Shown: one piece after another, positions 24,289-45,621 of the stretch
Numbering within the stretch: position 1 is the first letter of the stretch
Layout of the letters: the number at the start of each line of letters is the position of its first letter
DNA from: an uncultured Clostridia bacterium
Lineage (GTDB): Bacteria > Bacillota > Clostridia > Christensenellales > UBA1242
Reading direction: 5' to 3'
DNA: 64,000 bases
NCBI GenBank assembly: GCA_944350015.1
Contig: CALVNW010000001.1
Span: 36,761 to 100,760, forward strand
The notes under the pieces: generated by a model
Database searches by the model: none
What the model was told of the DNA's origin: nothing
The model's input: the letters and a program-made list of their open reading frames with translations, nothing else
Program-made: the position numbers and the translations under genes

Positions 24289-24318
24289 TTGACAAAAAAC
24301 ACTATAAAAATGTATAAT
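24289..24318 (+). promoter_or_regulatory. Promoter of the giant gene
   Basis: TTGACA (24289-24294), an 18-nt spacer, then extended -10 TGtTATAAT (24311-24318), about 70 nt upstream of the start codon. Confidence 0.6.
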
Positions 24319-24388
24319 CTTTCTATACGAGCAAAAATAGTCGCGTGTAAAGATTATCTTTAGTCAAAAGATGATGCGAGGAGGTTTT

Positions 24389-27300
24389 ATGAAAAAGTTT
24401 TTTGTCGGGTTCTTAAGTTTGTTTTGTATGTTCGGTGCGGTTTTGCTTACGGCTTGCGGTGGCAATAATGTCGAGCTGTCTTTATCGACCGAATTTGTTT
24501 CTATTCAGCTTGTGGAAGGCTCCACTAGCGAGCAGACCGTAACTGTAACAGTGTCTGGCGTCGATGACACTAGCATTCGAGCTGACGCGAGAGGTTACGA
24601 GGATAAGATAGATGTCAGACAGGAAAGTGTGGCAAATGGCAGAACGATCATTTATATCACTGGCAAAGAGGAAACTACTGACGGCTATGCCGAGGTTCAG
24701 GTTAGAACTCTTCAAGGCAACGTGACTAAAGTGATATATGTTGATGTTTATAGCCAGGTAAGCTCTATGGAGCAGAAAGAGGAAGAGACCACAAAGAAGA
24801 ATAACTACGCCATAAGGGGAGACAGCATTGAACTTATCGAAAACAATCTTCTTACATTCTATCCTTCACAAAATAGCAGACGCACAATCACTTGGACTCT
24901 TGCCGAGGGTACAAGTGGCGCGACGATTGAAGGCAACATCTTGACAATAGACTCTTCATACAATTCCGACCTTGCCTCTATCACTTTAATTGCAACAACA
25001 GAACTTGGAGTAAGTGCAGAGGTTGAACTTCCTGTAGTAGACAAGATTGAACAGGAGCTTGCTCTCTCTTGGTCATACAGTAGAGACACACAGGGCTATG
25101 AGCTAATAAGTAGCGACAATAACACCTTTACAATCGTACCAAATATTGCGAGCGACTTAAATTATATAGGTTACGTAAAACTACAATTTAATCAAGAGCT
25201 TGACGTAAGAGGCTATGCCCTTCTTAATGGCAGTCAAACAAGTGACCTAGTTGTAGAGGCGGATGGCGAAGATAATGACGGAAACAAAATCTTCTCAATC
25301 TATTCAAATAAGGCGCTTGACAATTCAAGCGTAAACCTCAACCGCGACTTTACTGTTTACTTTGAGGTTGGTTATAGTGAATTTGATTACAGCCTTTCAA
25401 CACTAGAGACAAACCCTATTCACGTAAATGTCAGAGAAAAGGTTAACGGCATCGTAATTTCAAATGAGGATGCCGATGATATCAAGGGTACAACACAAGT
25501 TTTGTACTCGGAATACAGCAACTCATATGGTCAAGAATATTTAGTTCAAGTTACGCCAACAACGGTAATTGGTGCAACTAGCAGATATTCTATTAGTTTG
25601 AGAATAACAAACCCTAATATTCCAACGGGTGGTCTTGCAAATGGATGTCCTGTAGAGTTTTGGTATCAAGATGTAAACAACAACAATATTTGGACACAAA
25701 TTCCACTCGAATATGATTCTGCACAAGGTATTTATACAACTCGCTCAAACAATACAGTATCAGTTAGCAGAATATTTATGAAAGCCTCCTCAAGCTTGAA
25801 CACACAGAACTTTGAAGGTATTGAGATTACTTTTAGAAGCGAGGATAACCCAGAGGTTACAAACACTTTTTACGCTCAACTTGTAAAGAGTGTATCGTAT
25901 GAAGATTTCACTTTTGAGGATGCCGACTTTAGGGTAGACTCAAGCGCATCTATAACAGACGTCAATATTACAAAGACCTTCGTTCTTCAAGGTCAAACTT
26001 CAGTTGAAGGACTTTACATAGTAAACAATAGTGACAATGTTTTGATAAGTGACCCTGCCTATATCACATCAACAAGTGACTCGGTAACTTTCTCAATCAC
26101 TTTGACGCTTAGAAGGGAAAGTTATGGGATAACAAGCCTTGACAGCTATCAAATTTGTCATAGAAATGGCTTGCAAAGTGAACTTTTTGATATAGATATA
26201 TTCTTGCCACTAAAAGACGCGACGGTATTATATGACGTAAGCGATATCAGCGACTCGGTGACTGATTATAAGACAAATAATTATTTATATGACAGCGAAG
26301 GTAATGTTATAAACGGCTCATTATATGGACTTTCTAGCATTATGATTAAAAATGGTTCAACAACACCAGTGCTTTATTCTTTCAATAAATCAGGTATTTA
26401 TCAAGCGCAAGCAAACATTGATGTTTCTTACTATGACTTTGTAGAAAGTGACACGATGGACCTTGCAACCTTCAAAGCCCTTATATCATCTCAAGCTGGT
26501 ATAATGGAAATTATAAATGGCGCAAGAGCAAATACAGAAAAGTCAAGCGATATTGCCTACTTTGCTCCAGATAATAACAGTATCATAACAAAAGGTGTTG
26601 GTTTTACGTATGCCGTTGTAACCTTCACAGGCAAAGGTGCGCTAGAGGATGCCGATGCTAATGGCAATGTAACTATAATTAAGATTATTTTAATTGAAAG
26701 TTACGTGTCACCATCTCGTATGAATGTAACGCCACTGAGCGACAGTCAAGTTAACCTCTATGCTTCAGATACAGTTGCAACTAGAGATGAGGCTTTAACT
26801 AAAAAGACAATCACCATCAACTTTGCAAATTCAGGCATAACCTATAAGGATATAGAAAACTTTGAGTTTGTTTCAACTGTAAAGGATTCAAGTGGCAATC
26901 CTATAATGACAAACAAATATGAAACAGAAAACTCTGTTTCTTGGGAAAACGGCAGATATTCAATAGATAAAATCACAATAACTGACTCATTTATCCGCTT
27001 TGATATTGTGACAAATTCAAACTTTGGTTCCTTCTCTTTCTTTGACGAACTTGAAGTGCATTATCAATTGCTTTTGGATGGCGAAGATGGCGAAACCGAA
27101 GTTTTAGATGTTATTTGGACAACAATCAACATTACAATAAGAAATGCTCAGCGCGTCACAAGTCTTAATTGGGAAAATAATGACGATGATGGCATATACT
27201 TTGAAATAGGTGATAGAGACCCTTACTATATCGTTCTTTCATCCTCACCAACAACGGCGAGAAACAACAATGTTACATATTTGGTGACAGATGAAAATGG

Positions 27301-30300
27301 TACAGTGCTTGATAATGACAGTTTTATAAGCGTAGATAATGAAGTTTCTTCTTCAATGGTGGGCTTATCTCTTAGCGATGCAATAGTGCAAGGTACAAGC
27401 GGTTATGTTTATCTATTGCCAGAAGATGCAGTTTATAATCAAAGCATTATCTATAATTATATTGACACAGACGGTACAGCTAAACAGGGACAAATAAGCG
27501 TAAGAGCGCTTGGCTCTATAAGAGATAACAATCAAACTTGGTTTGACTATTTGACAGAAAATGCCTTCTTCCTATCAAATACATCTTTAACTGGCGAGGC
27601 AGAGACTGTATACTTTGCGGACATTCTTATAAAGATTAAGGTTACAGTTGCAGATGGTACAAGCTTTGAATATGCATACAGAATTTATGACGAGGCTGGC
27701 TTTAACGGCATCAATCCAGAGCTTTACTACACAGTTATGAACAGCCTTAATATATCAAGCTCACGCCTTCAAATACCTGTATTCAATGGCGGACTTCAAG
27801 GTTATGACGATAGCATCACAGTAAACTTGAATGGCAATAACTTTGCAGGCGAAATTGGGCAAACTGCAGAGATTAGAAATATTACCTTTAGCGGTGATGT
27901 TACTGGACAAGGCTTTATTGCAAATGTCAATAATGGTACTATAAATAATGTTTCGCTTGATGTAAATCAAACCTATTCAAGCACAGTTTCTTATCAAGGT
28001 ACTGGCTTTGTCGGCGGACTTGTTGGCGTAAATAATGGCACAATTATAGCCTCATCAGTCCTTGGTGCAACAATAAGTGCAAGCAATGGCACGGTAGGTG
28101 GTGTTGCTGGTCAAAACAACGGCAGAATTGAAAGTTCAAGGGTAGAATTTTACAATCTTGCAGACAAGAATGACGCTGAAGGAACATTACAAAACTCTTT
28201 CGTGGGTGGCGTTGTCGGTGGTATCGTAGGTCAGGCAAACGATGGCTCAGTTATAGAGCGTACCTATGCTTATAACTATAATATTGACACCTTTACTACA
28301 ACTAATGCTACAGTGCTACTTGGTACAACTGTAGGAGCAATCGTAGGACAACTTGTTGGCGAGTCTACTATTTACTACTCATTTGCAGTAATTGATGGTA
28401 TATCAAACTATGCAGGCACCTTTGGTCAAGGCCCAACTTTAGGTAGCACTAGCATAGATTCAGACTTCTATTGGAGCTATTATTCAAATGGCGAATATAT
28501 AAGTCAGTTCTCTAATCAAAATAGTGCAAACCTTATAGCATCTGGAGAAAACTTCCACAGCTATGTAAATAACGGATATAGGCATTTTAGAGATTTATAT
28601 CAAGATGAAAAGGTTACAGACGTAACTTCAAATCAAATTCAAACGACTAAAGATGGCGACCTATACAAATCACTTGCAGTAGACAGCACAAAGGCAATTT
28701 TGTTTATCTATCAAATAGAGGAAAGCGTAGGAGACCTTTCGTCAAGTGAACAAAATGATTTAAACGAACTTAACACCATAAACCTTTCGCAGATAGTAGG
28801 TAGTCAAGGCTCAGACAATTTAATCATTACATCTTCCGACACTTCAATTATAAAAATAATTGGAAATTCTATTAGTATGCTTAAGAGTGGTGATGTAACT
28901 CTTACAATTTCATCAAAACACGATGTAAGCAATCAAAAGAATATTGCTATAAAGGTTATGCCTGCAATGTCGCAGATGATTATCTCATATACCGACAATT
29001 CAGGATACACCTACAACATTGAAGAAGGTTCTGTAACCCATCTTCAAAAAACAAAGTCAAGAGATTTCACCTTTGGCTATGAGGTTACAGGCGTATACCT
29101 TGGCTCTCAAGCAAATAGATACACTCTTGCACAAAACAATATCAACTTAACTTTAGATATTACTGTAAGCGGTGAGGGTAATGCGGTAAGCTATGAAAAG
29201 ATTAGTAATTCCATCTATAAGATTACTGCAAACAAAGATAGCGTTTCGTCACAATTAACCTTTAACCCTGTTGTAGTGACAGATGATAGCCAGCAAGCAT
29301 ATCAAGATGCAATCAACAGCGAGTTTTCAAAGTCATTCACAGTAAATCCAGTTGACGGAGTTATATCCTTCTATTATTCTGGCGAAAGCATACCACTAAC
29401 GCCATCTACAAATGGTGCGGTAAGAGTTGAAGTGCAAACCACAGCTCAAGGTGACAGAGAGAACTTAAGACCAGAAATCTCTTACAACAACGATGCTCTT
29501 ATTAGAACAAGAATAGACAAGCTTTCAAGTGGCGATGTGACAATCTATCGCTATACTCTTGCGAGCGACTATTCACAAGACCCAGACAATTACATTTTAT
29601 CGGCAACGGTAACACTCGTTGATGAAAGTTACAACTCATCGACAGGCATTTATAGTTTCATATTTGAGGTATCCTTCTCTGTATTTACAGGCTATCGTAT
29701 GCAGATTGACAGAGATATGACCTTTAATGTTTCATTTGTCAGTGACAGCGAAAGTGATAGCCTTGACACAACAGGTTCATTGACCCTGACGCTAACCAAA
29801 CAAAACTTTACAAGCGTTGATATGACCAACTTTAAAGTAGAAAGGTCAGTATGGGAACTTGTTAATGGTAGTTATACAACAACTCATACAAGAGGCGCTC
29901 AAGTTGGTGTTGTTTCACCAGGTAGCAGTTCAATTATGCAGATTACAGCAAACCCATCGTTTGCCCACTATGACTATATGGAACTTTCTTATAGCGGTTC
30001 AACTGTTTCTAGCGCTGTGAATTTTGAATTGTTATCTTCTATTGACGGGAAAAAATTCGTAAGAAACACAAGAGCTGATGTAGAGGCAAGGGCGAACACA
30101 ATTAGATTTACTCCATCCGATACTTCACTTGAAAAGGCAAATGGCATAATTTACTTTAGGGTGGCAGTAAACTCAACAGTCAATGTTGACACTATTTTAC
30201 AGTTCACCGCTTCCTTCTATGAAAGCGAAGGCAATTTGATTACCAGCGCTCACTACTACTTGACAATAAGCTATCTTGCAGAGCCAACAGTTACTATTGA

Positions 30301-33300
30301 CGGCTTGTCAACTGCATATCTTGCAGTAGGCTCATCGGTCGAAGTAGTTGTTCAAGTTCAAGAGGACCAAGTTGTTGATAGCCTCGTGCTTGACGGCGAC
30401 ACCTTGCAAGGAATTACTATATCATCGCTTAGCGAACCTACTATAGACCCTGTAACTCGCATCAAATCATATACAGCAACTCTTAATGCAACAGTAAATG
30501 CAAGCGTTGGCGCTCCAAACAATAGCTTTACCGTGCTTGCAAGGGTTTCTAGAACGCTCAATGGTGTGCAAGAGCAGAGAACCGCGCTTGCCAGCGTCAT
30601 TCTTGTAGACTTTAAACTTGACCAGTCAAGCATAAAAATTCAAGATGCAAACAATGGACAGTTGCAAGTTTGGGCTGGAGTAAGTAAGCAGTTTGATGTA
30701 GAATATGGGCTTTTGCCAGAAACTTACAACTATGACCAAAATGATGAAACAAGCGTAGAGCGGGTTCAAGAGTTACTGCAGGCAAGAGCAGACTTTTCAA
30801 TCAAACAATACTATGTTTCTACAAAGACTGTAGATGGCTTTACAAGTATTCAGTATGCAATCAACTATGATATTGCAAATAACACTCCGATACCTCTGTC
30901 AAAGAGATTATTCTATGTGGTTGATGGCAGTGAAATACCAGTTACCGACGCTTATGCAAGTACAGCTGGTGCAAGATTTAATTTTATAGATAATGATGAT
31001 GGCTCACAAGATGCAATGATTATAGGAGCAAGACTTGGCGAAAGCGTACAATTTAAACTTGAAACCTACATAGCTCTTGGTGACGGCAGTGAGCCTACAA
31101 CCTACAGCACATACTTTACTGTGACTGTGGAGGCATACTCAGACCCAGACATCCCTCTTACAATATCAAGTGCCTCTGAATTTGAGAACTTAAATCCAAG
31201 CGGATACTCTGAAATCACTCAAAACGATTATATACTAGCAAATGACATCGTTCTTGAAAACCACCAAGCTTTCAACACTTCGCTTATAAGGAGTCTTGAT
31301 GGTAATGGTTATACAATCTATATCAAGAGCTTTGCAACAACAACTTCGTCAAGCACGCTCAATATATCACTCTTTAATGAGGTGCTTGAGAGTACTACCT
31401 TAAAGAATGTGAGAGTTAATATCTATAATGGTGGACAATTGACGCTAGACCTTGCTCAGCTTGCAAATAATGTGCAGATAAACATAGCAGGTCTTGCCAT
31501 TACAAACTCTGGTACTATTACAAATAGTGAGGTGGTATCCTTCTATACCCAACAGTCAGCGATAGGAACGGTAGCAAATGTTAATGTACCAGCAACCACA
31601 AGACACAGCAATCCTTCTGGCTTTAATATTAAATTTATTAGAGGTAGCGGTACAACAGAAAATCAATATGTCAATCCAAACTCAACTTGGATACCTTCTG
31701 TTGCAGGCTTTGTACTTAATAATAGTGGAAGCATCACAAATTCAAGGGTAGGTGGTGATAGTATTACCATTCTTGGCGCCGAGAGACTTGCAACTGACGC
31801 TCAAGGCAATAGCTATAACTCTGGTTACACCTATGCATCAGAACTTGAACTTGGCACTTTCTATATAATAGGTCAAGGTGATATGGCAGGCTTTGTGCTT
31901 TCAAACACAGGCTCAATTGCCTCAAGTTTTGTAAAACAACTGGATATGGAAAATCAATCAAATACTACAAGTTATGACACCTCTGGATTTGTCAATTCGA
32001 ATAGTGGAAGTGTCATAACAAGCTATGTTGAAGGTGTAAAAAATCCAGAGAGTTACGAGGATAACCCTGATTATTCGAAATACGCATATGAAGGCTCGTC
32101 ATTAAAGTCTAATCTTGGTATTATTGCTGGTTTTGTTAACAACAATACAGGCAATATTAAAGATAGTTATTCAAATATCTTGATTTCAAATTCATCAATA
32201 GAATCAAGGGTATATCTTGCATCAGGTTTTGTCTATGAAAACTCTGGAACAATAGAAACTTGTTACTCGGCATCACAGATACAAAACTCTAGGTCAAACC
32301 AGATGAACTTCTCGGGTATAACTGCGGACGGTGAACCTCTTGCTTATGGCAACTATATCAATTGCTACTTCTTCAATAAGCTTTACTATGGCAGTGAGGA
32401 CAACTCAGACAACACAACTGAATCGCTCTATGCGACTGGTGCTGTGCTTATTCCAAATCCAGAACTTTCAACCTATTTCTATGGTTTTGCAATAGCAAAT
32501 GGAACAACTGACGGCATTTGGTCAATCAACGAAGAGGATGGAATTAAATTAATAGAGCCAAATATCAGGTCATATTCTCATAGATATATTCAATATATAG
32601 ATGAAGGCTCTGATTATACAGGTACAACAGCGCAAAATGATATAGGTGAGTACATTCTTCCTTATGCAACCCTTCAATTCACAGACTCGAGCAGAGAGAT
32701 AAACACAGCTCTTGGTTCGGCTAACAATCCTATTCTTATTGCTGATGCTCAAGATTTCATTGAGGTTACTGGAACTTCAACTTCAGTTAATATAAACAAA
32801 TATTTCAGCGACTACTCAATTTGGGGTACATATAGACTTGTAAGTGATATAGACCTTTCGTCAATAAGCGAATCTATAAGCTTGCCGTCAGTAACTAAGG
32901 CATTCTCAGGCACTCTCTATGGCAATGGCTTTACAATATCAAATCTTTCAATCGCCTCAGAGAGAAGCGGTGTCGCATACGGACTGTTCGCCTCAATGGA
33001 AAAGCGCAACGCTTCAAGCTCTTCGCCACTTATCAGTAACCTCATTCTAGAGGTCGACCAAGTTATGGCGGGCGACGTGTCTATGGTCGGCTCTATTGCG
33101 GGTTATATAAAAGACTCAATTATTGTAAGCGTAGAAATTATATTTAATGAAGATGCGACTGTAACTGGTCTTAACTTTGTAGGTGGTCTTACTGGACTTT
33201 CTTTTGGAGATAGCACGATTAAAAATATCGTAGTAACAAATCCAAATGTTGTGGCTGATAGATTTAATATAGATAGTAACGAAGAATATTTGACAGCATC

Positions 33301-36300: not shown

Positions 36301-39300
36301 GGCGGGCGACAATGATAACAACTCAAGAGTTGCTATCGGCAGTTCAAACGCATCAATAAATTATATTGGTGCAACCTTCTTAAGTGCCGAAACGATTAAC
36401 TTTGGCGGAATTGTCGGCAATGTTGCTTTTGACAGTCCTAATGATATTGTAACTTTAACAAACACAGCTTATGGCGGTGCTCTTAAGGTGTTTGGCGAAA
36501 AGAGTAATGGCGGAGAAGTTGTGTTTGGTGGTTCGATAGGAAATGCTAGCGGAACTGCCAATGTGACGACTGGATATAACTTAAATCTTGTAAACAACTA
36601 TAACTATGGTGATGTGTTTGTAGAATATGACACGAACGCAAGTCTTAAAGAGCTTGGTTCTTACACCTTTGGTGGTTTGACAGGTATGATAGAAAGCTCT
36701 TATAGATTGTCTGCAAACAATAACTATTCACTTGTTTCAAGTCATAATACAAGATATGAAGAAGGAATGAATTCAATAGCAGGCGGTGATGTCAAGACCA
36801 TAACAAATAATGCTCTTTTTGGTAGTGGCGTAACGCCAGAGAATTCAAGCCTTTTAGACAACTACTATACTTATGCAGTTTCATTATGTCACGATGAACT
36901 TGGTACAGATATTGGTTATACCGTAAATTATCCAAGCGATGGTGCGGGATATAATGGTTCAACAACAAGCAAGAGTAGCCTTGGTGGCGGAACAGCATTA
37001 AATATGATATCCGCTTTCAATAGTAGTACTATACAAATATATGTAGGAGAAGGCTTGACAGAGGGACATAAGTTAAACCCAATTGTGATTAACAGCACAG
37101 AGACTGTTTTGGATGCAACTTACAAGCTTAATGGTATGACTTACTTCTACTTTGATGCAAACGCCACTCTTTCTACTAATCTAACTGCGCAGGTGCCAAA
37201 GGCATACAATGATAAGGGCGAAGTTATAAGCACGTCAACTGTTTCAGAGCTTGAAAACATAGCAATTATAGGCAATTCGCGCGAGATTAGTTACTATCTC
37301 GACAAAACTGTCGACAACCCACGTGCTATGATAGAAACTTTATCAGGGTTCTCATATGTATCTGGTCTTGTTGTAAATTCAGATGTTAATATTGATAGTA
37401 TAGAGGGTGACACCTCAAATTTTGCGGGACTTGCAAACTCAATGTATGACAATGCCATGGTTTATGCCGTACAAATTAAGGGTACAATAAATGTAGGCGA
37501 CTCAAGCGCACTTAATGTTGGCGGAATTGTTGCCAATATGTACTCAGGAAAGATACTCGATAGTTCTACAGCAGTTGATATAACCTATCGCGGTGGTAGA
37601 AGCGGTAATGTTTATGGTATAGCAGGCGTTCAGAATAATGGTAGCGTACAGAATAAACTTATCATAAATAGCTATTCAACAGGAAGTATAGATTCATATA
37701 TCTCTGCTAACATCTATGCTATTACAGATATAATAAGTTACACCAAACTTATTAACACATATACCATAGCAAAACTCAACCAAAATGACTATACAATATC
37801 AGGCAACCCAACAGGAGTGGTATCGATTTTTGGTCTTGGGGGGAATAGTGGAATCCCAGCCTCTGCAGTTATTAGCAATTCATACTATGACTATAACAGT
37901 GTCAATTATGATGTTACTGAAGAGGAACTTGTAGGTAATAGCAATTACGATTTGCGACGTCTAACAGATACTTTTGTTGGCGTTGATGGCTCAGCTCCAG
38001 AAATATTTGACTCTATGGACTATGATAAGGGTACGCTTGAGTTCAACTACGGCTATCCTACACATAAATATGGCTTTATGAAACTCTCGTCATTTGCAAC
38101 TATTGCAAATGAGGATACAAACGAAGGCACTACGTACGATGATTATGTGATTGAAAGAGAGTATCAACGCTTGCCAAATAACACCTCATTTGCAAGTTAT
38201 GAGAATAAAGATAATCTATATTTCTTGATTACAAGCGCAGGATATCTAGCACGAATAAGTGAACTAAATATAAAATATCAAACTATAGGAAGTGCTGGCG
38301 ATGACGGTACTGACGATGACGGTACTGGTGATGACGGTACTGGAGAGAGCGGAAGCACTGGTAGTGCCTATGACATAAGGCGCTTTGTACTTATGTATGA
38401 TATCGACATAGAGCAAACTCAATATAAGGAAGGTCAATGGATTAGCATTGCCTTTGGTACAAAAACAGTTACAAACGGAAATGATAACGTGACCGTTCAA
38501 GATGCTCTTATCGACTTTGACGGACAAGAACATACAATCAAGGGACTTAAAACCTCACTATTTGATTCAATTCAAGGGGTTGATGCAAATAATCGAACAA
38601 ATATTATGAACCTACGCTTGACAGAACTTAAATTAAAAGGCGGTGGCGCTCTTGCTCAGAAGATTGGAAATACAAATGTTTCAAATATGACTATATCTGG
38701 CTTTGTAGATACTAAAGAAAGTACTATGGAAGTTCTTCTTCTACATGCTTTCTTAGGCGGTCTAACTAATTGGGCGTATACTTCTACAATATCTACTATT
38801 ACAAACTTAATAAAGATAGATGTAGAAAACAGTGTTGATGATACTGCTGACGCTGTTGCAGTTGGAGGAATAGTTGGTCTTGTAGCGGACACCAAATTTA
38901 ATTACTGTTCAAACTATGGGCCAATCAATGTCGCAATAAACGAAGATAAGAAGGTTTATCGATACTGTGTTGGGGGATTGGCTGGAGCGACTTTTAGTGG
39001 AACTGAAATTAATTACAGTTATAACGCAACTTCAGTAATGGCAGGCTATGCAACCTCAACTAGCCTTTCAACAGTAGTAGGAGAGTATTATGTTGGCGGA
39101 CTTGTTGGGTATAGTGATGGTATTGATATCACAGGCAGTTACAACTCTGGAACCATCAAGTCAGGCAACAAATCTAATGGAGCGACAAGTGGCACTAGCA
39201 CAAAGGGCGTTTCGTATGGTGGTGGAATAATAGCCTATGCATCAAGTGCTAACATAACCGAGTGTTACAACGAAGGCACTGTCGAATCCCTCGGCACCAG

Positions 39301-42300
39301 TCCAGAGACTAAATTTGTTTGGAAATATGAGTATCGGCAGGATATTATTCTTAAGCGAAAACTTAAGCTTGTATTATATCAAACAAGCCAAAGGAATGTT
39401 TGGGCTTATGCAATGGGATATTTAAAGGAAGGTACGATAAATAATTGTTCGGCTAACAACCCAAATCAAGAGACCATTTATATGAATGGAACAATGCTTG
39501 GGTTAAAAAATGGCAATCCGATAGAACTGCAGTCTTGGGAATGGGAAGATATCTCAGCGAAGATTGATATTACAACTATAAACAATAAAATTTATACAGG
39601 TGGTGCTACTTGGTCAGATTGGCAAGGTTGGTTGATATTTAAATCTTTATATCAGAATCTCTACGCCATTAAAATAAATATTAACACTTACATAGATATC
39701 CCAGAGGTTCAAGATACTGCAAATGGTGATGATGCTAATATCTATGTAAATGCTTATAACAGTTTTGGTTTGCCAAGCAGTTTTGTTGTGCCTATTCAAA
39801 TATCAACGAATATAAAATTTTCAGATCATGAAGCTAAAAGTTATGATGGTATAATTGAAGGTGGGTTGCAAAACGGTAAGCCACCAGATGTCCCTTCATC
39901 AGGTAGTTCTGAGTGGAAATATAAAGCAGAACATAGGGTATCAAATAAAGAATATTCTGCATTTGATTATTCAACTTCATATGATAATTATATCTCAGCC
40001 TATAGTGATAGTTATATTGGAATGGTTGGCGCAACCAGTGTTAGCGGAGGCGGATTGAATGGAGAAGAGATAAAATACAATACAAGAAGTGCCGAAAGTG
40101 CCGATATTACAAATTTAAGTACTACAATAGCAGGGCAGAGTTATTATCAAGCAAACGCCAATAATATTAATGCAATATTTAATGCAGGAACATATCAATA
40201 TGAAGTAGAGGCACCTTTGAATGGCATACCTTATGTTAATAATACTAAATATTATAGTATATCTAACTTAAGATGCTCAGGAGTTTCTAGTTCAGGCATA
40301 TCAGCAAGCGTAACAAAAGTTACAGAAGATAATGTGTATTTTACTGTCTTCAGCAATGAAAAATTGAGCGGGAATATAACTTATTCTATTAATTTTAATT
40401 ATAATACTCAACTTTCATTTAATTTAACAGATTTAAAATATTACTACATTGACAATTATTCGTTCGGAATATTTGTCAACGGAATTAATAGTATTAACGC
40501 AATTCCTGAGTATTCTATTATAGCGCCTAACGGGGAAAAATACAACAATGTAGCTATAGGTTATTGCGTCGGCGATTCAGAAGACTCATCACAAAATATT
40601 CCTGTGCTTAATATAAACGAACTCGGACAAGAAGAATGTGAAGAAAAGTATCTGTTCTTCGCAGTTGAAAATGGAATGCTAGTTTATATTCCTAATGCGG
40701 AACTTTATATAGATGATGAGCTTAGGTACAACGTAAACAAAGAAGAGTTTGAAAATGGCAATTTTGAGGACAACTTTGAAGAAAACTTAAATAAGATTGT
40801 CGAAGAACGTTTTGCAGGTCAAAGTTACGTATTTTCAACAATGTCGAGCGAAGAAAGAGAAAAAGAAATAGGGAAGTATTTTGGCAATGTTTACGGAGAA
40901 GCAAGTGGCAATATCATAATATCGGACAGCAAAGAGGGCACCGTTGATTTAGTTTATGGTATTGATGTAGGTGCTTGGTACAATTCTTCACCAGAAACTT
41001 CAGATAATGTTGTTGCTAGTTATGCTAGTTACATAAATGTAAATGTCTCAAATAAAGCTACGTCAGGGACATCTTATACCGTGCTGTTTAATGGAAAAGA
41101 AGTTGCACAGTACACAGGTAGTGTTTTTAGTTGGGATGGGAAACCGATAGGCGGTTATATAGACGGTTATAGCTATTCCATTAATGTGTCAAACAGTGGA
41201 ATTTCTCTAAAAATGAATGGTATAAACTTAGATTTGGACGGAACTAACAATTTACGCAAAAAAGTTGAAGGCTTGTTTACCGTTCAAGAAGGTTCGGCTT
41301 CAAATTACATCGAGATCAAATCGGATTATGATGAGGTAGTAGAAACCAAAACATTCACATTTAAATTTACTCTAAAAGACTTATCTTCAGACACCATAGT
41401 TTGCAATTTGTCTGACAAAGCATTATTGAGTTATGATAAAGATGGTGGAGGCTGGGGAATATCGAGTAATTTCAAGCAAGTTACAATAAGCGGGCACACC
41501 TTTGATGTAAGCTTAGATGGATATAAACTGACTTTTACTATAACAGATAGCTCAAACGGGAATTACACAAACACTTTAAGGAGTTATATGGGAGATCTTG
41601 AAGCTAGAACAAACGGCTCTAATGGTGTAAAGATAAATGATTCCTTTGCAAACATTGTAGGGGGAGAGGTATCATCAAGTTTTAGTGGTGTGAGCGGAAC
41701 ATTAACTATGAAATACTCGGTTGATAAGTGGTATGAGGTTGATTTAGAGCAGTACTCTTACCTTGAATCTAATAGGACCACTGGAGAGATTAACTTTAAA
41801 GGCGATGACTATGCAAGTTACGGACTCGGAGGTGGTATTACGTTAAATGGAGTTACTGTTTATGTAGGAAAAATTAACGATATTAAATTTGTTCAAAAAT
41901 ATCAAAAGAACATAACAGAGTATAAGATAGTTATTAATGATGGCATAGGAGAATTCGCAAGTATTGCATATGAGTTCAAAATAGGCGACTATATATTCTC
42001 TGAGGGTGTAACAAATGGAGGTTCTACTAGCGGTGCGTTTGAAGCTACAAATGATGATGGCGTCTCTGCAGACAGGATAGGCGAAGGAATAGTGAATTTT
42101 AAAGCTAGTATATGCCCAGCCTATAAGTTACAACCAGATGATACTAAGACAATTAACATTGTTCTTGAGAGAACAAATTCACCTACTACAGACCCCGAAT
42201 ACTTTATTGCTAGTGGCACACTAAATGATGATAATACCAGCATTCAAAGTAATCTTATAAAATACTATACTAAAAATTCAAACATACTCGTTTCATTGCA

Positions 42301-44224
42301 AGTATTTGATGATGGTAGCTTTACTATTTATGATAGCAATGGGAATGCTATATTAATGTATACTAGTAAAAAAATTACATCTGACGAAGGTTCAATAGAT
42401 TCAGGCTATTATGCTTTTTATGATAGCAACGGAGAGCTAAATGAAAATGGTTTAATAAATATAAATTCTAGTTCAAATCCATTAATCTATACATCAACAA
42501 GAGGGCAGTCAATAAGGTTAGCGCAGATGCTACCTTCTGCTAATGGGTATAAACCTTATATTACAGATACCGATATATTGGGCGTTACAAATAATGGTTA
42601 TATATATATAAGAGGTGATTACCCTCTAGTCGACGAATTAAATGGAATAACATCTACGATTACAGCTTATGATTATCAGTGGACAAGTAGCCAAAAATTA
42701 CCAGAGATGGAAGGTACTTCAAGTACTTTGGATATACTGTATTCACAGAAAGATAATTTTGATTTTAGTTTTACTGAAGATGGGGAAGTCGTTTATTTAG
42801 AAGAAGGTAAAAATTATAACTTAACTGAGAATAACGCAGGTTACGCAATTTTTGACTTGCTTTTAAATGATGATGATTCTAGTGTTGGGTATCTCAACGT
42901 TAAGATAACTGGTTCGGGTACGAAGTCTGGTAGCTCAGCTGTAAACGCCAATGTGACAGCCCTTCAAGCACAATCAATAATACTATTTTCTGATATTTCC
43001 TTTAACAACATAGGAGGAGGATTTGTAATAAGCAGTGGAATAGATATTATAGGTAATGACTATTATATCTCTTATTTCGGAACATCTTTGTTTAAGGAAT
43101 TTAGAGGTGGAGGGTCACTTATAAAAGATGTGAAACTTCTTGCGGAAAGCGGAGAAGATGCTCTAATATTCACGGGAGATAGCTATAATGTTGCACTTAA
43201 TAATATAGAGCTTTATGGCGCAAAGGTAGAGCATACTGGAACAGGCGGTGCAATAATCAATTATACTGCTGGAAGTTTTAATTATAGCGGAACAGCAAAC
43301 ATTATATCCTTCGCTAGTATTAATGGTAAGTTAAACAATATTGGAAGGAAAAATGTAGGAGCTGAAGATGACGATTTGTCCGATACTGTTAATGACTTAA
43401 CTCTCTTTAATTGCGCTTTATCTGTCAATATTACAAACTATGGTTTTATCTCGGCATCTAACGGAAGGGATGGAACTAATGGTCGCAATGCGGGCTCTAC
43501 TGATTACCAATTAGCTGGTGGCGAGGGAAGCGGTGGAGAAAACGGGTTTAACATTATACTTACCGAATCTAATAATGCCTCCACCTCATCAATAACAAAT
43601 AAAGGTATTATGAAAGCTGGAAACGGCGGAAATGGCGGTGCTGGCGGTAGCAGTGGTCGAGGAAAAGATGAGCCTTTTAAAACAGAAAACATCTCTTATG
43701 GTACTACCAGAAGAGAAACCTATAGTGGAGGTACTGTAGGTAAAGCTGGTGACGGAGGCAGTGCTGGTACTATTATGATAAACAGCGAAAGCTTATATAA
43801 AGGAGCGAACAACTTAAAATCTTATAATGGCATTTCAGGCCTTTCAGGGGCAAGGGGAAGATATGGTGTTGGTGGCATAAGAGTTGTAGATAATGAATAT
43901 GTATTTGTGAGAGCACTTTGTGCGAATCGCGCAAACGTTGCGGCGAATTTGCCGTTTAACGAGTATTATGCAGAAAAGGAAAGTTACAACAACCAATTCA
44001 AAAATATCTTGAATGGTGGTTCAGAAAAACCTTGGCGTTTTGATGGTGAAAATGATAAAGCATACAATCTAGCGGATTTATGTGACAAGATTTTAAATTT
44101 ATCGGCAGAAGGCTATGATGATTCAGAAACCAAATACCCAACTGAAGAAGATGGAGCTCGATGGGATGGCTCTAACTATGCTGCCTTATTAGAGGAGGCT
44201 AATCCCACCGAGGGACAAAATTAA
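24389..44224 (+). CDS. Giant surface lipoprotein (about 6,611 aa) with many GLUG-type beta-helix repeats
   Basis: One uninterrupted 19.8-kb ORF. ATG at 24389 follows gaggagg. The lipoprotein signal is MKKFFVGFLSLFCMFGAVLLTAC. The N-terminus is Ig-like and beta-rich. There are dozens of G(F/Y)(V/I)GG(L/I)VG..NG.I..S-type units (e.g. GFVGGLVGVNNGTIIASSV, GTVGGVAGQNNGRIESSRV, AGFVLNNSGSITNSRV, YIGGLVGYVGSGKIEVSYS), typical of the GLUG motif. Confidence 0.9.
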   Translation: MKKFFVGFLSLFCMFGAVLLTACGGNNVELSLSTEFVSIQLVEGSTSEQTVTVTVSGVDDTSIRADARGYEDKIDVRQESVANGRTIIYITGKEETTDGYAEVQVRTLQGNVTKVIYVDVYSQVSSMEQKEEETTKKNNYAIRGDSIELIENNLLTFYPSQNSRRTITWTLAEGTSGATIEGNILTIDSSYNSDLASITLIATTELGVSAEVELPVVDKIEQELALSWSYSRDTQGYELISSDNNTFTIVPNIASDLNYIGYVKLQFNQELDVRGYALLNGSQTSDLVVEADGEDNDGNKIFSIYSNKALDNSSVNLNRDFTVYFEVGYSEFDYSLSTLETNPIHVNVREKVNGIVISNEDADDIKGTTQVLYSEYSNSYGQEYLVQVTPTTVIGATSRYSISLRITNPNIPTGGLANGCPVEFWYQDVNNNNIWTQIPLEYDSAQGIYTTRSNNTVSVSRIFMKASSSLNTQNFEGIEITFRSEDNPEVTNTFYAQLVKSVSYEDFTFEDADFRVDSSASITDVNITKTFVLQGQTSVEGLYIVNNSDNVLISDPAYITSTSDSVTFSITLTLRRESYGITSLDSYQICHRNGLQSELFDIDIFLPLKDATVLYDVSDISDSVTDYKTNNYLYDSEGNVINGSLYGLSSIMIKNGSTTPVLYSFNKSGIYQAQANIDVSYYDFVESDTMDLATFKALISSQAGIMEIINGARANTEKSSDIAYFAPDNNSIITKGVGFTYAVVTFTGKGALEDADANGNVTIIKIILIESYVSPSRMNVTPLSDSQVNLYASDTVATRDEALTKKTITINFANSGITYKDIENFEFVSTVKDSSGNPIMTNKYETENSVSWENGRYSIDKITITDSFIRFDIVTNSNFGSFSFFDELEVHYQLLLDGEDGETEVLDVIWTTINITIRNAQRVTSLNWENNDDDGIYFEIGDRDPYYIVLSSSPTTARNNNVTYLVTDENGTVLDNDSFISVDNEVSSSMVGLSLSDAIVQGTSGYVYLLPEDAVYNQSIIYNYIDTDGTAKQGQISVRALGSIRDNNQTWFDYLTENAFFLSNTSLTGEAETVYFADILIKIKVTVADGTSFEYAYRIYDEAGFNGINPELYYTVMNSLNISSSRLQIPVFNGGLQGYDDSITVNLNGNNFAGEIGQTAEIRNITFSGDVTGQGFIANVNNGTINNVSLDVNQTYSSTVSYQGTGFVGGLVGVNNGTIIASSVLGATISASNGTVGGVAGQNNGRIESSRVEFYNLADKNDAEGTLQNSFVGGVVGGIVGQANDGSVIERTYAYNYNIDTFTTTNATVLLGTTVGAIVGQLVGESTIYYSFAVIDGISNYAGTFGQGPTLGSTSIDSDFYWSYYSNGEYISQFSNQNSANLIASGENFHSYVNNGYRHFRDLYQDEKVTDVTSNQIQTTKDGDLYKSLAVDSTKAILFIYQIEESVGDLSSSEQNDLNELNTINLSQIVGSQGSDNLIITSSDTSIIKIIGNSISMLKSGDVTLTISSKHDVSNQKNIAIKVMPAMSQMIISYTDNSGYTYNIEEGSVTHLQKTKSRDFTFGYEVTGVYLGSQANRYTLAQNNINLTLDITVSGEGNAVSYEKISNSIYKITANKDSVSSQLTFNPVVVTDDSQQAYQDAINSEFSKSFTVNPVDGVISFYYSGESIPLTPSTNGAVRVEVQTTAQGDRENLRPEISYNNDALIRTRIDKLSSGDVTIYRYTLASDYSQDPDNYILSATVTLVDESYNSSTGIYSFIFEVSFSVFTGYRMQIDRDMTFNVSFVSDSESDSLDTTGSLTLTLTKQNFTSVDMTNFKVERSVWELVNGSYTTTHTRGAQVGVVSPGSSSIMQITANPSFAHYDYMELSYSGSTVSSAVNFELLSSIDGKKFVRNTRADVEARANTIRFTPSDTSLEKANGIIYFRVAVNSTVNVDTILQFTASFYESEGNLITSAHYYLTISYLAEPTVTIDGLSTAYLAVGSSVEVVVQVQEDQVVDSLVLDGDTLQGITISSLSEPTIDPVTRIKSYTATLNATVNASVGAPNNSFTVLARVSRTLNGVQEQRTALASVILVDFKLDQSSIKIQDANNGQLQVWAGVSKQFDVEYGLLPETYNYDQNDETSVERVQELLQARADFSIKQYYVSTKTVDGFTSIQYAINYDIANNTPIPLSKRLFYVVDGSEIPVTDAYASTAGARFNFIDNDDGSQDAMIIGARLGESVQFKLETYIALGDGSEPTTYSTYFTVTVEAYSDPDIPLTISSASEFENLNPSGYSEITQNDYILANDIVLENHQAFNTSLIRSLDGNGYTIYIKSFATTTSSSTLNISLFNEVLESTTLKNVRVNIYNGGQLTLDLAQLANNVQINIAGLAITNSGTITNSEVVSFYTQQSAIGTVANVNVPATTRHSNPSGFNIKFIRGSGTTENQYVNPNSTWIPSVAGFVLNNSGSITNSRVGGDSITILGAERLATDAQGNSYNSGYTYASELELGTFYIIGQGDMAGFVLSNTGSIASSFVKQLDMENQSNTTSYDTSGFVNSNSGSVITSYVEGVKNPESYEDNPDYSKYAYEGSSLKSNLGIIAGFVNNNTGNIKDSYSNILISNSSIESRVYLASGFVYENSGTIETCYSASQIQNSRSNQMNFSGITADGEPLAYGNYINCYFFNKLYYGSEDNSDNTTESLYATGAVLIPNPELSTYFYGFAIANGTTDGIWSINEEDGIKLIEPNIRSYSHRYIQYIDEGSDYTGTTAQNDIGEYILPYATLQFTDSSREINTALGSANNPILIADAQDFIEVTGTSTSVNINKYFSDYSIWGTYRLVSDIDLSSISESISLPSVTKAFSGTLYGNGFTISNLSIASERSGVAYGLFASMEKRNASSSSPLISNLILEVDQVMAGDVSMVGSIAGYIKDSIIVSVEIIFNEDATVTGLNFVGGLTGLSFGDSTIKNIVVTNPNVVADRFNIDSNEEYLTASSLVTMRNNISNNLSISTSIGSTLMTQMQRYSYAGSVVGFADHFVSSLRGFNVAQASDYSINNIRVSGIVYVQGQVAGGAIGLTGYQTHVRDAGVDITASMTSNQSHIIATKYFAGGVIGQSFGGLSRIYSQYDSSTQDLIENNYTAIFNGNESAERGATDIFYLENNVYGYSQMYIGGLVGYVGSGKIEVSYSKLNVVSLSASFAGGIVGALDLTEVSTYQAESELLSGNDGVYTKYFINEVYASGDVRAKQDGDPSVMTAGGIIGVSYGLGNSITLLAVNAVNQILNYDYATDSYIEVYDGLNISYTIKTNLILGAVYKDKDSTEQIVLVDDISDDGHYENYFNFIRPSGTMGGSAPEAEGDLPSVAYYEYYGYNGNKTYLNIIGNITGQVGNEDNTLYNNDYVYAISAPSNYSSASVGHQSTQQAFLNSGVWVISNWVHPGDDLLPTIRYQRTSSYIYLDDYTESVEYVFQLMQSANSDYTIVVRGRTSPDIEDSYSDINLEDYRDVVDVDLMIRGFQGSLIGSNEYITTDGEGGRNHRVKIISSQSFIASTGAGFYLNNVVVEYVDNGGIKLTTNTQNTAGLFSMSALNEATIISLDMTVSSPITVTNSPQVSSNELIFGLLAPSIESSSMSNVDIKAEGFSSTDSLVTLDINKNNTNNNTEIITAGIIAGQAMQSSTFSILQLDGINIVTDSNYLTIDGNNKDYSAIYTGGYFGKIERTEEALEVRMNISSITRDSLTTDGNPQLNVVDVGNVTEAYVGGYVGYNNGLNYLGTFQDGNFQTNIDIVISSNSSSVFENLYTGLLFGAIGSSSALDNVNLYNSNFEGGLFLSDTVTIENVYAGGFAGEINSVMSIGNITSINYQVADIDILEDSAVDNLSKDSFDSSSYNAYTVNMDGNAYVGGIVGKINTRFTFTGGSSAFTKINENGEAIRLTGSGNLYVGSVIGYVNSTVANTNDLSVNIYNNIVSNASFVVVQDDNPATVGIGGIIGYISGGDTAGDNDNNSRVAIGSSNASINYIGATFLSAETINFGGIVGNVAFDSPNDIVTLTNTAYGGALKVFGEKSNGGEVVFGGSIGNASGTANVTTGYNLNLVNNYNYGDVFVEYDTNASLKELGSYTFGGLTGMIESSYRLSANNNYSLVSSHNTRYEEGMNSIAGGDVKTITNNALFGSGVTPENSSLLDNYYTYAVSLCHDELGTDIGYTVNYPSDGAGYNGSTTSKSSLGGGTALNMISAFNSSTIQIYVGEGLTEGHKLNPIVINSTETVLDATYKLNGMTYFYFDANATLSTNLTAQVPKAYNDKGEVISTSTVSELENIAIIGNSREISYYLDKTVDNPRAMIETLSGFSYVSGLVVNSDVNIDSIEGDTSNFAGLANSMYDNAMVYAVQIKGTINVGDSSALNVGGIVANMYSGKILDSSTAVDITYRGGRSGNVYGIAGVQNNGSVQNKLIINSYSTGSIDSYISANIYAITDIISYTKLINTYTIAKLNQNDYTISGNPTGVVSIFGLGGNSGIPASAVISNSYYDYNSVNYDVTEEELVGNSNYDLRRLTDTFVGVDGSAPEIFDSMDYDKGTLEFNYGYPTHKYGFMKLSSFATIANEDTNEGTTYDDYVIEREYQRLPNNTSFASYENKDNLYFLITSAGYLARISELNIKYQTIGSAGDDGTDDDGTGDDGTGESGSTGSAYDIRRFVLMYDIDIEQTQYKEGQWISIAFGTKTVTNGNDNVTVQDALIDFDGQEHTIKGLKTSLFDSIQGVDANNRTNIMNLRLTELKLKGGGALAQKIGNTNVSNMTISGFVDTKESTMEVLLLHAFLGGLTNWAYTSTISTITNLIKIDVENSVDDTADAVAVGGIVGLVADTKFNYCSNYGPINVAINEDKKVYRYCVGGLAGATFSGTEINYSYNATSVMAGYATSTSLSTVVGEYYVGGLVGYSDGIDITGSYNSGTIKSGNKSNGATSGTSTKGVSYGGGIIAYASSANITECYNEGTVESLGTSPETKFVWKYEYRQDIILKRKLKLVLYQTSQRNVWAYAMGYLKEGTINNCSANNPNQETIYMNGTMLGLKNGNPIELQSWEWEDISAKIDITTINNKIYTGGATWSDWQGWLIFKSLYQNLYAIKININTYIDIPEVQDTANGDDANIYVNAYNSFGLPSSFVVPIQISTNIKFSDHEAKSYDGIIEGGLQNGKPPDVPSSGSSEWKYKAEHRVSNKEYSAFDYSTSYDNYISAYSDSYIGMVGATSVSGGGLNGEEIKYNTRSAESADITNLSTTIAGQSYYQANANNINAIFNAGTYQYEVEAPLNGIPYVNNTKYYSISNLRCSGVSSSGISASVTKVTEDNVYFTVFSNEKLSGNITYSINFNYNTQLSFNLTDLKYYYIDNYSFGIFVNGINSINAIPEYSIIAPNGEKYNNVAIGYCVGDSEDSSQNIPVLNINELGQEECEEKYLFFAVENGMLVYIPNAELYIDDELRYNVNKEEFENGNFEDNFEENLNKIVEERFAGQSYVFSTMSSEEREKEIGKYFGNVYGEASGNIIISDSKEGTVDLVYGIDVGAWYNSSPETSDNVVASYASYINVNVSNKATSGTSYTVLFNGKEVAQYTGSVFSWDGKPIGGYIDGYSYSINVSNSGISLKMNGINLDLDGTNNLRKKVEGLFTVQEGSASNYIEIKSDYDEVVETKTFTFKFTLKDLSSDTIVCNLSDKALLSYDKDGGGWGISSNFKQVTISGHTFDVSLDGYKLTFTITDSSNGNYTNTLRSYMGDLEARTNGSNGVKINDSFANIVGGEVSSSFSGVSGTLTMKYSVDKWYEVDLEQYSYLESNRTTGEINFKGDDYASYGLGGGITLNGVTVYVGKINDIKFVQKYQKNITEYKIVINDGIGEFASIAYEFKIGDYIFSEGVTNGGSTSGAFEATNDDGVSADRIGEGIVNFKASICPAYKLQPDDTKTINIVLERTNSPTTDPEYFIASGTLNDDNTSIQSNLIKYYTKNSNILVSLQVFDDGSFTIYDSNGNAILMYTSKKITSDEGSIDSGYYAFYDSNGELNENGLININSSSNPLIYTSTRGQSIRLAQMLPSANGYKPYITDTDILGVTNNGYIYIRGDYPLVDELNGITSTITAYDYQWTSSQKLPEMEGTSSTLDILYSQKDNFDFSFTEDGEVVYLEEGKNYNLTENNAGYAIFDLLLNDDDSSVGYLNVKITGSGTKSGSSAVNANVTALQAQSIILFSDISFNNIGGGFVISSGIDIIGNDYYISYFGTSLFKEFRGGGSLIKDVKLLAESGEDALIFTGDSYNVALNNIELYGAKVEHTGTGGAIINYTAGSFNYSGTANIISFASINGKLNNIGRKNVGAEDDDLSDTVNDLTLFNCALSVNITNYGFISASNGRDGTNGRNAGSTDYQLAGGEGSGGENGFNIILTESNNASTSSITNKGIMKAGNGGNGGAGGSSGRGKDEPFKTENISYGTTRRETYSGGTVGKAGDGGSAGTIMINSESLYKGANNLKSYNGISGLSGARGRYGVGGIRVVDNEYVFVRALCANRANVAANLPFNEYYAEKESYNNQFKNILNGGSEKPWRFDGENDKAYNLADLCDKILNLSAEGYDDSETKYPTEEDGARWDGSNYAALLEEANPTEGQN

Positions 44225-44246: not shown

Positions 44247-45008
44247 ATGAAAGATAGTGATAAAGATGAAAAGGGCAAGTGTATCCACGACGGACATAGA
44301 AAAAGGTTGACTGAAACAGTCAACCGTGTCGGTCTGGATGGTTTAAGTAACATTCAAGTCCTTGAGTATATCCTTTTCTTCATATTTCCGCGAGGGGATG
44401 TAAATCCTCTCGCCCACCGTCTCCTTGACCGCTTTGAGAATGTTCATACCGTGCTTGAAGCTTCTGTTGAAGATTTGATGGAAGTAAAAGGAATTGGTGA
44501 AATGGCAGGGCAAAAAATCCACTCGCTACTTGAAGTTTTCTACTATTACACAGCCGAAAAATTAAATTATCAACCACTCAAAACCCTTGGTGATTTTCTT
44601 GATTATGTTGAGCAACTTTTGCGTTACCGCGCCGAAGAGGAGCTCCACGTTTTTGGTGTCAATATTTCTGGCGAGGTTGAACAGGGTAGATGCCTTGCAA
44701 AGGGCAATAATACACTTGTTGGAGTTAATATGCGTGATATCGCATTGTACGTTTCAACCGCAAAAGTAAAAAAGGCGTATTTAGTGCATAATCATCCAGG
44801 AGGCTCAAGTACACCATCTGAACAAGACAAGATGTCATATGACAGAATGAAAGGCATTTTCACTTTCACAGGGTGCAGACTCGCCGACTCTTTTGTTATA
44901 GGTAAAGATGGTATTTATAGTATGGAGCGCAAATCTATCATTCGCGTATTTAGTGAAGGTTTAGAATATTTGCAATCATTACTCCTAGAAGACTCGCAAG
45001 AAGGGTAA
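44247..45008 (+). CDS. radC: RadC-like JAB-domain protein
   Basis: SD aaaggag, 23 nt after the giant ORF stop. The HhH region is DLMEVKGIGEMAGQKI and the JAMM motif is LVHNHPGGSSTPSEQD. Confidence 0.88.
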   Translation: MKDSDKDEKGKCIHDGHRKRLTETVNRVGLDGLSNIQVLEYILFFIFPRGDVNPLAHRLLDRFENVHTVLEASVEDLMEVKGIGEMAGQKIHSLLEVFYYYTAEKLNYQPLKTLGDFLDYVEQLLRYRAEEELHVFGVNISGEVEQGRCLAKGNNTLVGVNMRDIALYVSTAKVKKAYLVHNHPGGSSTPSEQDKMSYDRMKGIFTFTGCRLADSFVIGKDGIYSMERKSIIRVFSEGLEYLQSLLLEDSQEG

Positions 45009-45321
45009 CAAAAAAGTTGACAACAATAAAAATCCAAAGACGAGAAGGTTTTTCTTCTCGTTTTTTGTTGTCATCTTGCTCAAGTAATTCATTACCAAAA
45101 GGAAGCACGCAAAGGCAGTATACGCCATCATCGTCATATTTTATAGAGATATACTCTTGCCTTTCAAGATAAATCAGTATATTTTCAAGCCCTTCAACAT
45201 CAATCTTGTATTTACTAGGCATTGCAGAAATTATGTCCTTTGACTCTATGATATTATAGGAGCCATAAGGGCATTCTTTTATCAAAATTTTCAAGACAAG
45301 TTTTGACTTTATGTCAAGCAT
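44950..45321 (-). CDS. Membrane-tethered winged-helix-like protein, paralog A (123 aa)
   Basis: The start at ATG 45321 is chosen by alignment to paralog B (MLDIKSKLVLKILIKEC vs MPDSKEKLVLKYLCKVC). Shared segments are ..YISIKYDDDGVYCLCV.. vs ..YIDFVVSDSKNGYFYCVKL... The C-terminal TM helix is LWIFIVVNFFVTLLASLLGVMIANIL. Its 3' end overlaps radC by 59 nt. Confidence 0.6.
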   Translation of the reverse strand: MLDIKSKLVLKILIKECPYGSYNIIESKDIISAMPSKYKIDVEGLENILIYLERQEYISIKYDDDGVYCLCVLPFGNELLEQDDNKKREEKPSRLWIFIVVNFFVTLLASLLGVMIANILNLH

Positions 45322-45558
45322 ATAGATAGTTTTTGCAATAAGCAAATATTTATGCCTTTTAATCATCCACATTGTCAGTTTTTGCGGAGAGATACAGGGT
45401 AGTAGCACCAAACTTAGGTCGGACCATTGTCGTTTATTGTATCTATATTTTTACTATTATTTGGTCCGCCCAAGCATTAAAATATCCCTCTTTTTTGGGA
45501 CACAGATAGCATCCCCGCATTTTTTGTGATAGAAATTAAACGAAGTATGTCAATTTGC

Positions 45559-45586: not shown

Positions 45587-45621
45587 AGGGTATCCAAAAT
45601 AAATTTTGGATACCCTATTTT
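45582..45621. repeat. 40-bp perfect palindrome overlapping the -10 box
   Basis: aaaatagggtatccaaaat (45582-45600), aa, then attttggataccctatttt (45603-45621). The arms are 19-bp perfect inverted repeats. Confidence 0.9.

Follow-up and report, generated by a model that had tools for sequence, protein, structure and literature searches.

A 6,611-residue predicted lipoprotein with GLUG-type repeat modules and a conserved-base, variable-tip gradient in uncultured Clostridia

We examined a 64-kb window of DNA from an uncultured Clostridia bacterium (64,000 nucleotides of contig CALVNW010000001.1, assembly GCA_944350015.1; all coordinates below are those of the window), in which one open frame at 24371..44224 (+) holds a single giant gene. 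Its coding sequence runs from 24389 to 44224 (+), comprises 6,611 codons plus a TAA stop, and occupies 31% of the window. No in-frame stop interrupts it, compared with 496 and 728 stops when this stretch is read in the other two frames, which excludes a chance open frame. The 33 TGG and zero TGA codons of the gene indicate the standard genetic code, and an alternative code is not needed. Two ATGs lie in frame 5′ of the ATG at 24389, and both are missing from the orthologues described below, which share the sequence MKKF; for this reason, and because a Shine-Dalgarno sequence GAGGAGG (24378..24384, +) stands 4 nt ahead, we placed the start at 24389. Further upstream is a sigma-70-type promoter, TTGACA-18 nt-TATAAT (24289..24318, +), that matches the consensus at 12 of 12 positions. 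TTGACA...TATAAT is also visible 5′ of the orthologues at three other loci (L005, L006 and L008), and the GAGGAGG sequence is kept in L005 and L008. An earlier reading of this DNA from its letters (hereafter the original prediction) had described an uninterrupted 19.8-kb frame starting at 24389, covering 31% of the window and encoding roughly 6,600 residues behind its own promoter and a strong Shine-Dalgarno sequence, and all of this was borne out.

The giant gene is neither an assembly artefact nor a pseudogene. An exact look-up of the RadC protein encoded directly downstream returned 15 contigs, and in at least three separate assemblies the product called upstream of it is the same 6,611-aa protein. 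Over the 4.3 kb that were compared, the DNA of those assemblies does not differ from the window, and same-strain assemblies around radC (~4.3 kb) are identical or differ by 2 bases. A scan of species-representative genomes with a single-sequence query found four orthologues in metagenome-assembled genomes (MAGs) labelled 'uncultured Clostridia bacterium' (91, 66, 62 and 48% identity over the query segment), each of them one intact frame of 6,395–6,629 aa. A metagenome scan added three further full-length genes (6,558, 6,626 and 6,646 aa) and one that ends at a contig end. The eight full-length members, including the window gene, therefore span 6,395–6,646 aa, with lengths within 4% of one another at 38–80% overall identity; two loci of the same lineage, L010 and L011, are essentially identical over 4,674 aa. 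Since the frame is intact and its length nearly constant in at least eight species-level lineages, the protein must matter to the cell. The original prediction had proposed stops or frameshifts in independent assemblies as the test for an artefact or pseudogene, and the frame is intact both there and in seven other species-level lineages.

We then compared substitution rates along the gene. Between the window gene and its nearest orthologue (L005), the ratio of nonsynonymous to synonymous divergence (dN/dS, Nei-Gojobori) is 0.04–0.14 for aa 1–4500 and 0.17–0.32 beyond, and the L006/L008 pair gives similar values. Because dN/dS lies well below 1 along the entire length, the whole giant protein is under purifying selection. 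DNA repeats within the gene never exceed 50 nt, its tandem repeats are trivial, and self-BLAST of the protein found no internal match, which together make repeat collapse unlikely. Scans with window hidden Markov models (HMMs) detected weak similarity between the blocks of GLUG-type repeats described below, and as this was the only internal similarity that self-BLAST and these scans revealed, recent internal duplication and assembly collapse were rejected. There is one consideration on the side of an artefact or a decaying pseudogene, namely that all of the evidence comes from short-read metagenome assemblies and that the gene is known from DNA alone; set against an intact frame in eight lineages from several studies, these dN/dS values and the lack of long internal DNA repeats, it leaves that explanation with a vanishingly small probability.

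The protein opens with a predicted lipoprotein signal peptide, MKKFFVGFLSLFCMFGAVLLTAC (24389..24457, +), followed by GG. Tested against the lipobox pattern [LVI][ASTVI][GAS]C within the first 15–35 residues, it shows an MKK n-region, the h-region FFVGFLSLFCMFGAVL and the lipobox L-T-A-C, in which the predicted lipidated cysteine is residue 23. An L[TS]AC lipobox is found in all eight full-length orthologues and in one truncated copy, and 8 of 8 carry MKKF...L[TS]AC. After cleavage at Cys23 the mature protein would have 6,589 aa, with a computed mass of 714 kDa and pI of 4.3; its composition is acidic, with Ser, Gly, Asn and Thr abundant. A motif search found neither LPxT[GAN] nor NPxTG anywhere in the protein, the signal peptide is its only hydrophobic stretch, and the C-terminus is acidic and hydrophilic, so that the C-terminal LPxTG-like motif, hydrophobic segment and positive tail of a sortase anchor are all missing. 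Both the LLTAC lipobox and the lack of a cell-wall sorting motif agree with what had been read from the sequence before. A text search likewise found no SLH motif, and Pfam, run on ten overlapping segments with E up to 5, matched neither SLH nor CWB2. These searches bear on one alternative, that the protein forms an S-layer-like coat or sheath, a lattice around the cell, instead of binding partners. Very strong expression signals (the consensus promoter and Shine-Dalgarno sequence), an acidic protein rich in Ser, Thr, Asn and Gly, and a length kept tightly across species would all suit such a coat. However, the searches turned up no wall-binding domain, SLH and CWB2 included, the divergent tip described below better fits an exposed interaction surface, and to our knowledge a single 714-kDa chain far exceeds known S-layer subunits; we consider a coat quite unlikely.

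To describe the architecture of the protein we relied on Pfam Glug (PF07581; gathering score 20.5 bits) and on a repeat HMM that we derived from the evident GG[LIV][VA]G units. Pfam Glug exceeded its gathering score only in the block at 38.6–39.3 kb (30.5 bits, three stretches, aa 4656–5375; 26.2 and 20.8 bits in longer segments), and the other blocks fell under the threshold (15.5, 12.4 and 13.3 bits). The repeat HMM recovered 24 units at 5 bits or more versus none in 20 shuffles, and its units recur at homologous positions in orthologues that were left out of training. The units are of the GLUG type: several repeats of ~26–40 aa in tandem, built on a GG[LIV][VA]G core and grouped as domains. 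They lie at 27.9–28.4, 31.5–32.3 (an AGFVxNNxGxI variant), 33.2–34.2, 35.3–36.7 plus 37.5, and 38.6–39.3 kb, with a weaker GLUG-like head at ~43.0 kb; a head of the type 'DI.L ... G.L.GNG.TI' precedes the units and is clear in four modules. Of the six GLUG blocks separated by non-repeat regions that had been predicted, five thus stand as clusters of units and the sixth, at 43.0 kb, is a weak head, but Pfam passes only the one at 38.6–39.3 kb. We found negligible coverage of the GLUG motif in the literature.

Read from the N-terminus, the signal peptide is followed by a conserved, membrane-proximal region (24458..27778, +; aa 24–1130) that is 95% identical to L005 and 45% identical to L007, the locus lacking radC downstream, and that has no match in Pfam, NCBIfam, PDB or PHROGs. 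GLUG module 1 (27779..28408, +; aa ~1131–1340) has 3–5 GLUG units and a sub-threshold Pfam Glug match (E 0.023; 3.6e-4 in one orthologue, with 4 of 5 orthologues matching at E≤1). After a conserved non-repeat spacer with no known domain (28409..31222, +; aa ~1341–2278) comes module 2, a GLUG-variant beta-helix (31223..32368, +; aa ~2279–2660) with the head DYILxxDIxL...SLDGNGYTI and six AGFVxNNxGxIxxS units, and then module 3, a predicted GLUG beta-helix (32816..34168, +; aa ~2810–3260) with the head YRLVSDIDL...FSGTLYGNGFTISNL and six GGxxG units. Module 4, possibly more than one module, spans 34796..37588 (+; aa ~3470–4400) with 8–10 looser units, and module 5 spans 38456..39298 (+; aa ~4690–4970) and is the block that passes the Pfam gathering score. 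The remainder is a divergent distal region (39299..44221, +; aa 4971–6611), which holds the GLUG-like head at aa ~6220 and a conserved Gly-rich stretch at aa ~6340–6500. NCBIfam and PHROGs returned no match for the giant protein; PDB sequence and profile searches were empty or gave spurious hits (GFP and the designed propeller Tako8), and the Listeria-Bacteroides repeat, Big, FIVAR, dockerin and LRR families were all absent. The Ig-like N-terminal modules of the original prediction found no support at the level of sequence profiles, as no Ig-like or Big Pfam family was matched in aa 1–1130 of five orthologues or in aa 1131–2240, and PDB profile searches gave nothing relevant.

The repeat modules resemble a known domain in predicted structure. 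We built an AlphaFold2 model of aa 2201–3400 (window 30989–34588) with nine homologous fragments; it has a predicted template modelling score (pTM) of 0.71, contains two beta-helices, and its predicted local distance difference test (pLDDT) values are mostly 70–96. Module 2 corresponds to residues 79–460 of the modelled segment and shows a short-strand triplet pattern. The top Foldseek matches in the PDB were the Streptococcus pneumoniae IgA1-protease entries 6xjb and 6xja (probability 1.0, E 5e-3); their TM-scores are kept low by the multi-domain nature of the model. Behind them, at weak E-values, came pectate-lyase-fold enzymes, Ag43 and phage tailspikes. As modelled, the two helices are right-handed beta-helices like the N-terminal domain of IgA1 protease, a domain that gates and helps bind substrate (PMC7695701). 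The likeness extends to sequence, since the N-terminal domain of this protease, ZmpA (6XJB/6XJA), also carries GG[LIV][VA]G..n.G.I.n. repeats after a 'DIDL...F.G.L.GNG.TI' head. Unlike ZmpA, however, the giant protein lacks the M26 peptidase domain, HExxH, the G5 domain and LPxTG, and it has six modules versus one, a lipid anchor and 3–4 times the length. No HExxH occurs anywhere in it and neither Peptidase_M26 nor any other peptidase family was matched in Pfam; with no HExxH it is not a Zmp-type protease. At the level of the repeat module, the giant protein is an uncharacterised member of the GLUG beta-helix class.

The same structural matches raise the alternative of a surface-tethered multi-enzyme, in which one or more of the beta-helix modules, as polysaccharide lyases or glycoside hydrolases of the pectate-lyase fold, would break down host or dietary glycans. 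Foldseek matches after IgA1 protease do include the fucoidan lyase FdlA, chondroitinase B, pectate lyases, pectin methylesterases and phage depolymerases. Yet these are weak (E 0.1–10, TM below 0.3) and reflect a generic fold, Pfam gave no match to a lyase, hydrolase or Beta_helix family, and the repeats are of the GLUG type, whose only solved example that we found is a non-catalytic gating and binding domain (PMC7695701). We regard the multi-enzyme as unlikely.

In the viral structure library BFVD, the best matches to the same model were the brown-alga phaeovirus proteins EsV-1-160 (E 2e-12) and FirrV-1-A51 (E 3e-7), aligned over nearly the whole 1,200 residues. That they outscore every phage tailspike makes them an unexpected structural relative. 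Both are uncharacterised eukaryotic-virus proteins represented by predicted structures at 13–15% identity, and we saw no sign of shared function or recent transfer.

Sequence conservation falls steeply from the N- to the C-terminus. Identity to L005 is ~95% for aa 1–3300 and 30–65% for aa 4600–6611, and every other orthologue pair compared shows the same gradient. The distal region (aa 4971–6611) is under 35% identical to orthologues other than L005, and its last 110 aa, at 27–31% identity even to L005, are the most divergent part of the protein. All indels of 25 aa or more fall within aa 4628–6445, including one 26-aa gap at aa 4628–4653, just ahead of the distal region. Synonymous divergence (dS) follows the same course: between window 24389–44221 and L005 3401–23287 it is 0.25–0.4 over aa 1–1200 and 0.8–2.8 over aa 3300–6611. 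The flanking genes (iPGM 0.19, PP-loop 0.35, MBL 0.28, radC 0.36) are at the level of aa 1–1200, so that synonymous divergence in the distal part is 3–8 times that of the genes on both sides. Differences at four-fold sites rise from 0.13–0.22 to 0.37–0.50 in the 5′ to 3′ direction; these sites were counted only at identical residues flanked by identical residues, which guards against misalignment. This gradient from a conserved base to a variable tip, as read from the alignments, is a new finding. The rise in distal divergence suggests that an exposed tip recombines, imports alleles or is under balancing selection. A more specific version, in which a lipid-anchored fibre of fixed length has a recombining tip, its proximal two-thirds evolving with the genome and its distal third made of older or imported alleles, is possible but tentative. 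If it holds, exchange or balancing selection would be driven by hosts, phages or competitors, few predicted bacterial lipoproteins would be larger, and the protein would be a major surface determinant that sets strains of an uncultured gut Clostridia clade apart.

A variable C-terminus is also what would be expected of a contact-dependent polymorphic toxin, with a long stalk and an exchangeable C-terminal effector. The extreme C-terminus is indeed the most divergent part, next to a radC gene that is 98% identical to its L005 copy. No toxin, LXG, Rhs or pre-toxin domain was matched, however, and no small immunity-like gene lies downstream, where radC begins after 22 nt; an N-terminal lipid anchor, moreover, offers no known delivery route. 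The orthologues also have in common a tail motif, T.YPT..W.G..Y, and the Gly-rich block, from which we conclude that the tail diverged and was not swapped. With no toxin domain, no immunity-like gene and a C-terminal tail that is homologous among orthologues, the contact-dependent effector considered in the original prediction is very unlikely.

Relatives of the giant protein all come from Clostridia MAGs or metagenomes and are either unnamed or annotated 'hypothetical protein'. The C-terminal 1,200 aa have eight relatives among 1.84 billion representative proteins, all of which look like fragments of the same family. A word-indexed search with the N-terminal 1,130 aa and a C-terminal profile scored 8,000 word-sharing candidates and found no homologues, which is weak evidence of absence since full-length giants seem to lie outside that database. 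The family occurs only within a narrow, uncultured clade of low GC (28–37%). The window also carries mraW and a penicillin-binding protein (PBP) transpeptidase gene, which indicate a walled organism and not a Mollicute; the possibility of a surface protein from a wall-less Mollicute was rejected on the same grounds.

Of the functions considered, we think it probable that the giant protein is a fibre or adhesin on the cell surface, lipid-anchored and variable at its tip; the role of adhesin or fibre was among those suggested earlier and is the best functional reading here. The protein would be exported by Sec, then lipidated and cleaved by signal peptidase II at Cys23, after which the N-terminal cysteine would hold it to the outside of the cytoplasmic membrane. 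The conserved N-terminal ~3,300–4,600 residues would form a stalk in which beta-rich spacers alternate with right-handed beta-helix (GLUG) modules and which would carry the protein through and past the peptidoglycan. The divergent C-terminal ~2,000 residues would then be an exposed tip, whose contacts outside the cell may include host mucus or glycans, food particles, other cells or phages. Lipidation, surface exposure, extended shape and binding function are properties that we infer for the protein.

Several observations weigh against this proposal. About 70% of the giant protein matches nothing in Pfam, NCBIfam, PHROGs or PDB, and no ligand-binding domain was recognised in it. The AlphaFold model of the C-terminus is poor (pLDDT 41) and provides no usable structure of the tip; Foldseek matches of that model (teneurin, DDB1 and OspA) were rejected as noise. 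The case for expression, lipidation and surface location is built on sequence signals, and since beta-helices also scaffold polysaccharide lyases and hydrolases, the protein may have an enzymatic role.

The proposed fibre has parallels among known surface proteins. Giant surface adhesins of Gram-positive bacteria include Staphylococcus aureus Ebh and LPxTG-anchored Mub/SraP-type proteins. Like them, the giant protein is a very large, secreted, beta-rich and modular Firmicute protein that is presumably surface-extended and to which a part in adhesion is ascribed. It differs in having an N-terminal lipobox instead of a C-terminal sortase signal or transmembrane segment, in lacking their usual domains, and in carrying strongly diverged modules instead of near-identical tandem repeats. 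In Gram-negative bacteria, Ag43, pertactin, FHA and EtpA likewise use a beta-helix scaffold as a surface stalk or binding face, but they leave the cell by type V secretion, through a beta-barrel or TpsB partner, belong to a different envelope, and show no sequence similarity to the giant protein. The remark in the original prediction that proteins of this size are rare holds in general but not for gut Clostridia, which encode proteins of 10,000–30,000 aa that have been interpreted as adhesins (bioRxiv 10.1101/2023.11.21.568195), so that 6,611 aa is not exceptional by size alone. What is notable, from the predicted features, is an N-terminal lipid anchor on a 0.7-MDa chain, ~4,500 residues without a recognisable family, and a variable tip with excess dS. 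No concept is overturned, as there are precedents both for giant adhesin-like proteins and for GLUG beta-helices.

The gene takes up ~20 kb of an apparently low-GC uncultured Clostridia genome. As a probable major surface structure, its product is a candidate route of attachment to host mucus, particles or partners, and phages and host immunity are likely to target it. The ~4,500 residues without a recognisable domain would be material for new folds or families, and the conserved base and variable tip provide a concrete means of typing strains and of selecting fragments for expression.

Directly downstream lies a radC-family (JAB domain) gene (44247..45008, +; Pfam RadC E 7.5e-18) with its own AAAGGAG Shine-Dalgarno sequence. 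It starts 22 nt after the stop codon of the giant gene, immediately downstream as predicted but not at the predicted distance of 23 nt. No terminator was detected between the two genes, which are therefore probably co-transcribed. We take radC to be a neighbour and not a functional part of the giant protein; it is downstream in 6 of the 7 other full-length loci and absent in L007. Upstream, a PP-loop (TilS-like) gene adjoins the giant gene in every locus with an upstream flank, with iPGM and a metallo-beta-lactamase (MBL)-fold hydrolase beyond it wherever the flank reaches. Given these housekeeping flanks with conserved synteny and the lack of a PHROGs match, a prophage tail fibre was rejected.

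The region after radC had been put forward as a candidate phase-variable locus, but it shows no homopolymer or short-repeat tract typical of phase variation. Two small paralogues with a C-terminal membrane segment, at 44950–45411 (−) and 46207–46602 (+), flank a 171-aa secreted protein (45638–46153), and none of the three genes (44950–46602) matches a Pfam family. A copy of the 44950–45411 gene stands directly after the giant gene in L007, and the 46207–46602 gene is 84% conserved in L012. Ahead of the secreted-protein gene is a perfect 19-nt inverted repeat at 45582–45621 (AAAATAGGGTATCCAAAAT / ATTTTGGATACCCTATTTT, 2-nt spacer), a candidate operator site, with a near-consensus promoter (45559–45586) just before it. 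An AT-rich intergenic region at 46575–46830, 5′ of uvrB, contains 3–4 imperfect ~32-nt repeats and many imperfect inverted repeats.

Elsewhere in the window, three open reading frames (ORFs; 635, 455 and 506 aa) at 52120–54027 (−) and 11159–14043 gave no significant match in Pfam. Six tRNA genes (Gly, Arg, His, Gln, Gln, Lys) at 5523–6196 are directly followed by a tyrosine integrase gene (6463–7611, −), a helix-turn-helix (HTH) repressor-like gene (7645–7989), several family-less ORFs and a BspA-type leucine-rich-repeat protein (14056–15495); the region 6463–20000 is probably an integrated mobile element beside tRNA-Lys. At 58029–60563, an 844-aa protein has an N-terminal CvpA (colicin V production) membrane domain followed by ~650 aa that match nothing, and its gene sits just 5′ of mraW/rsmH and the cell-division cluster.

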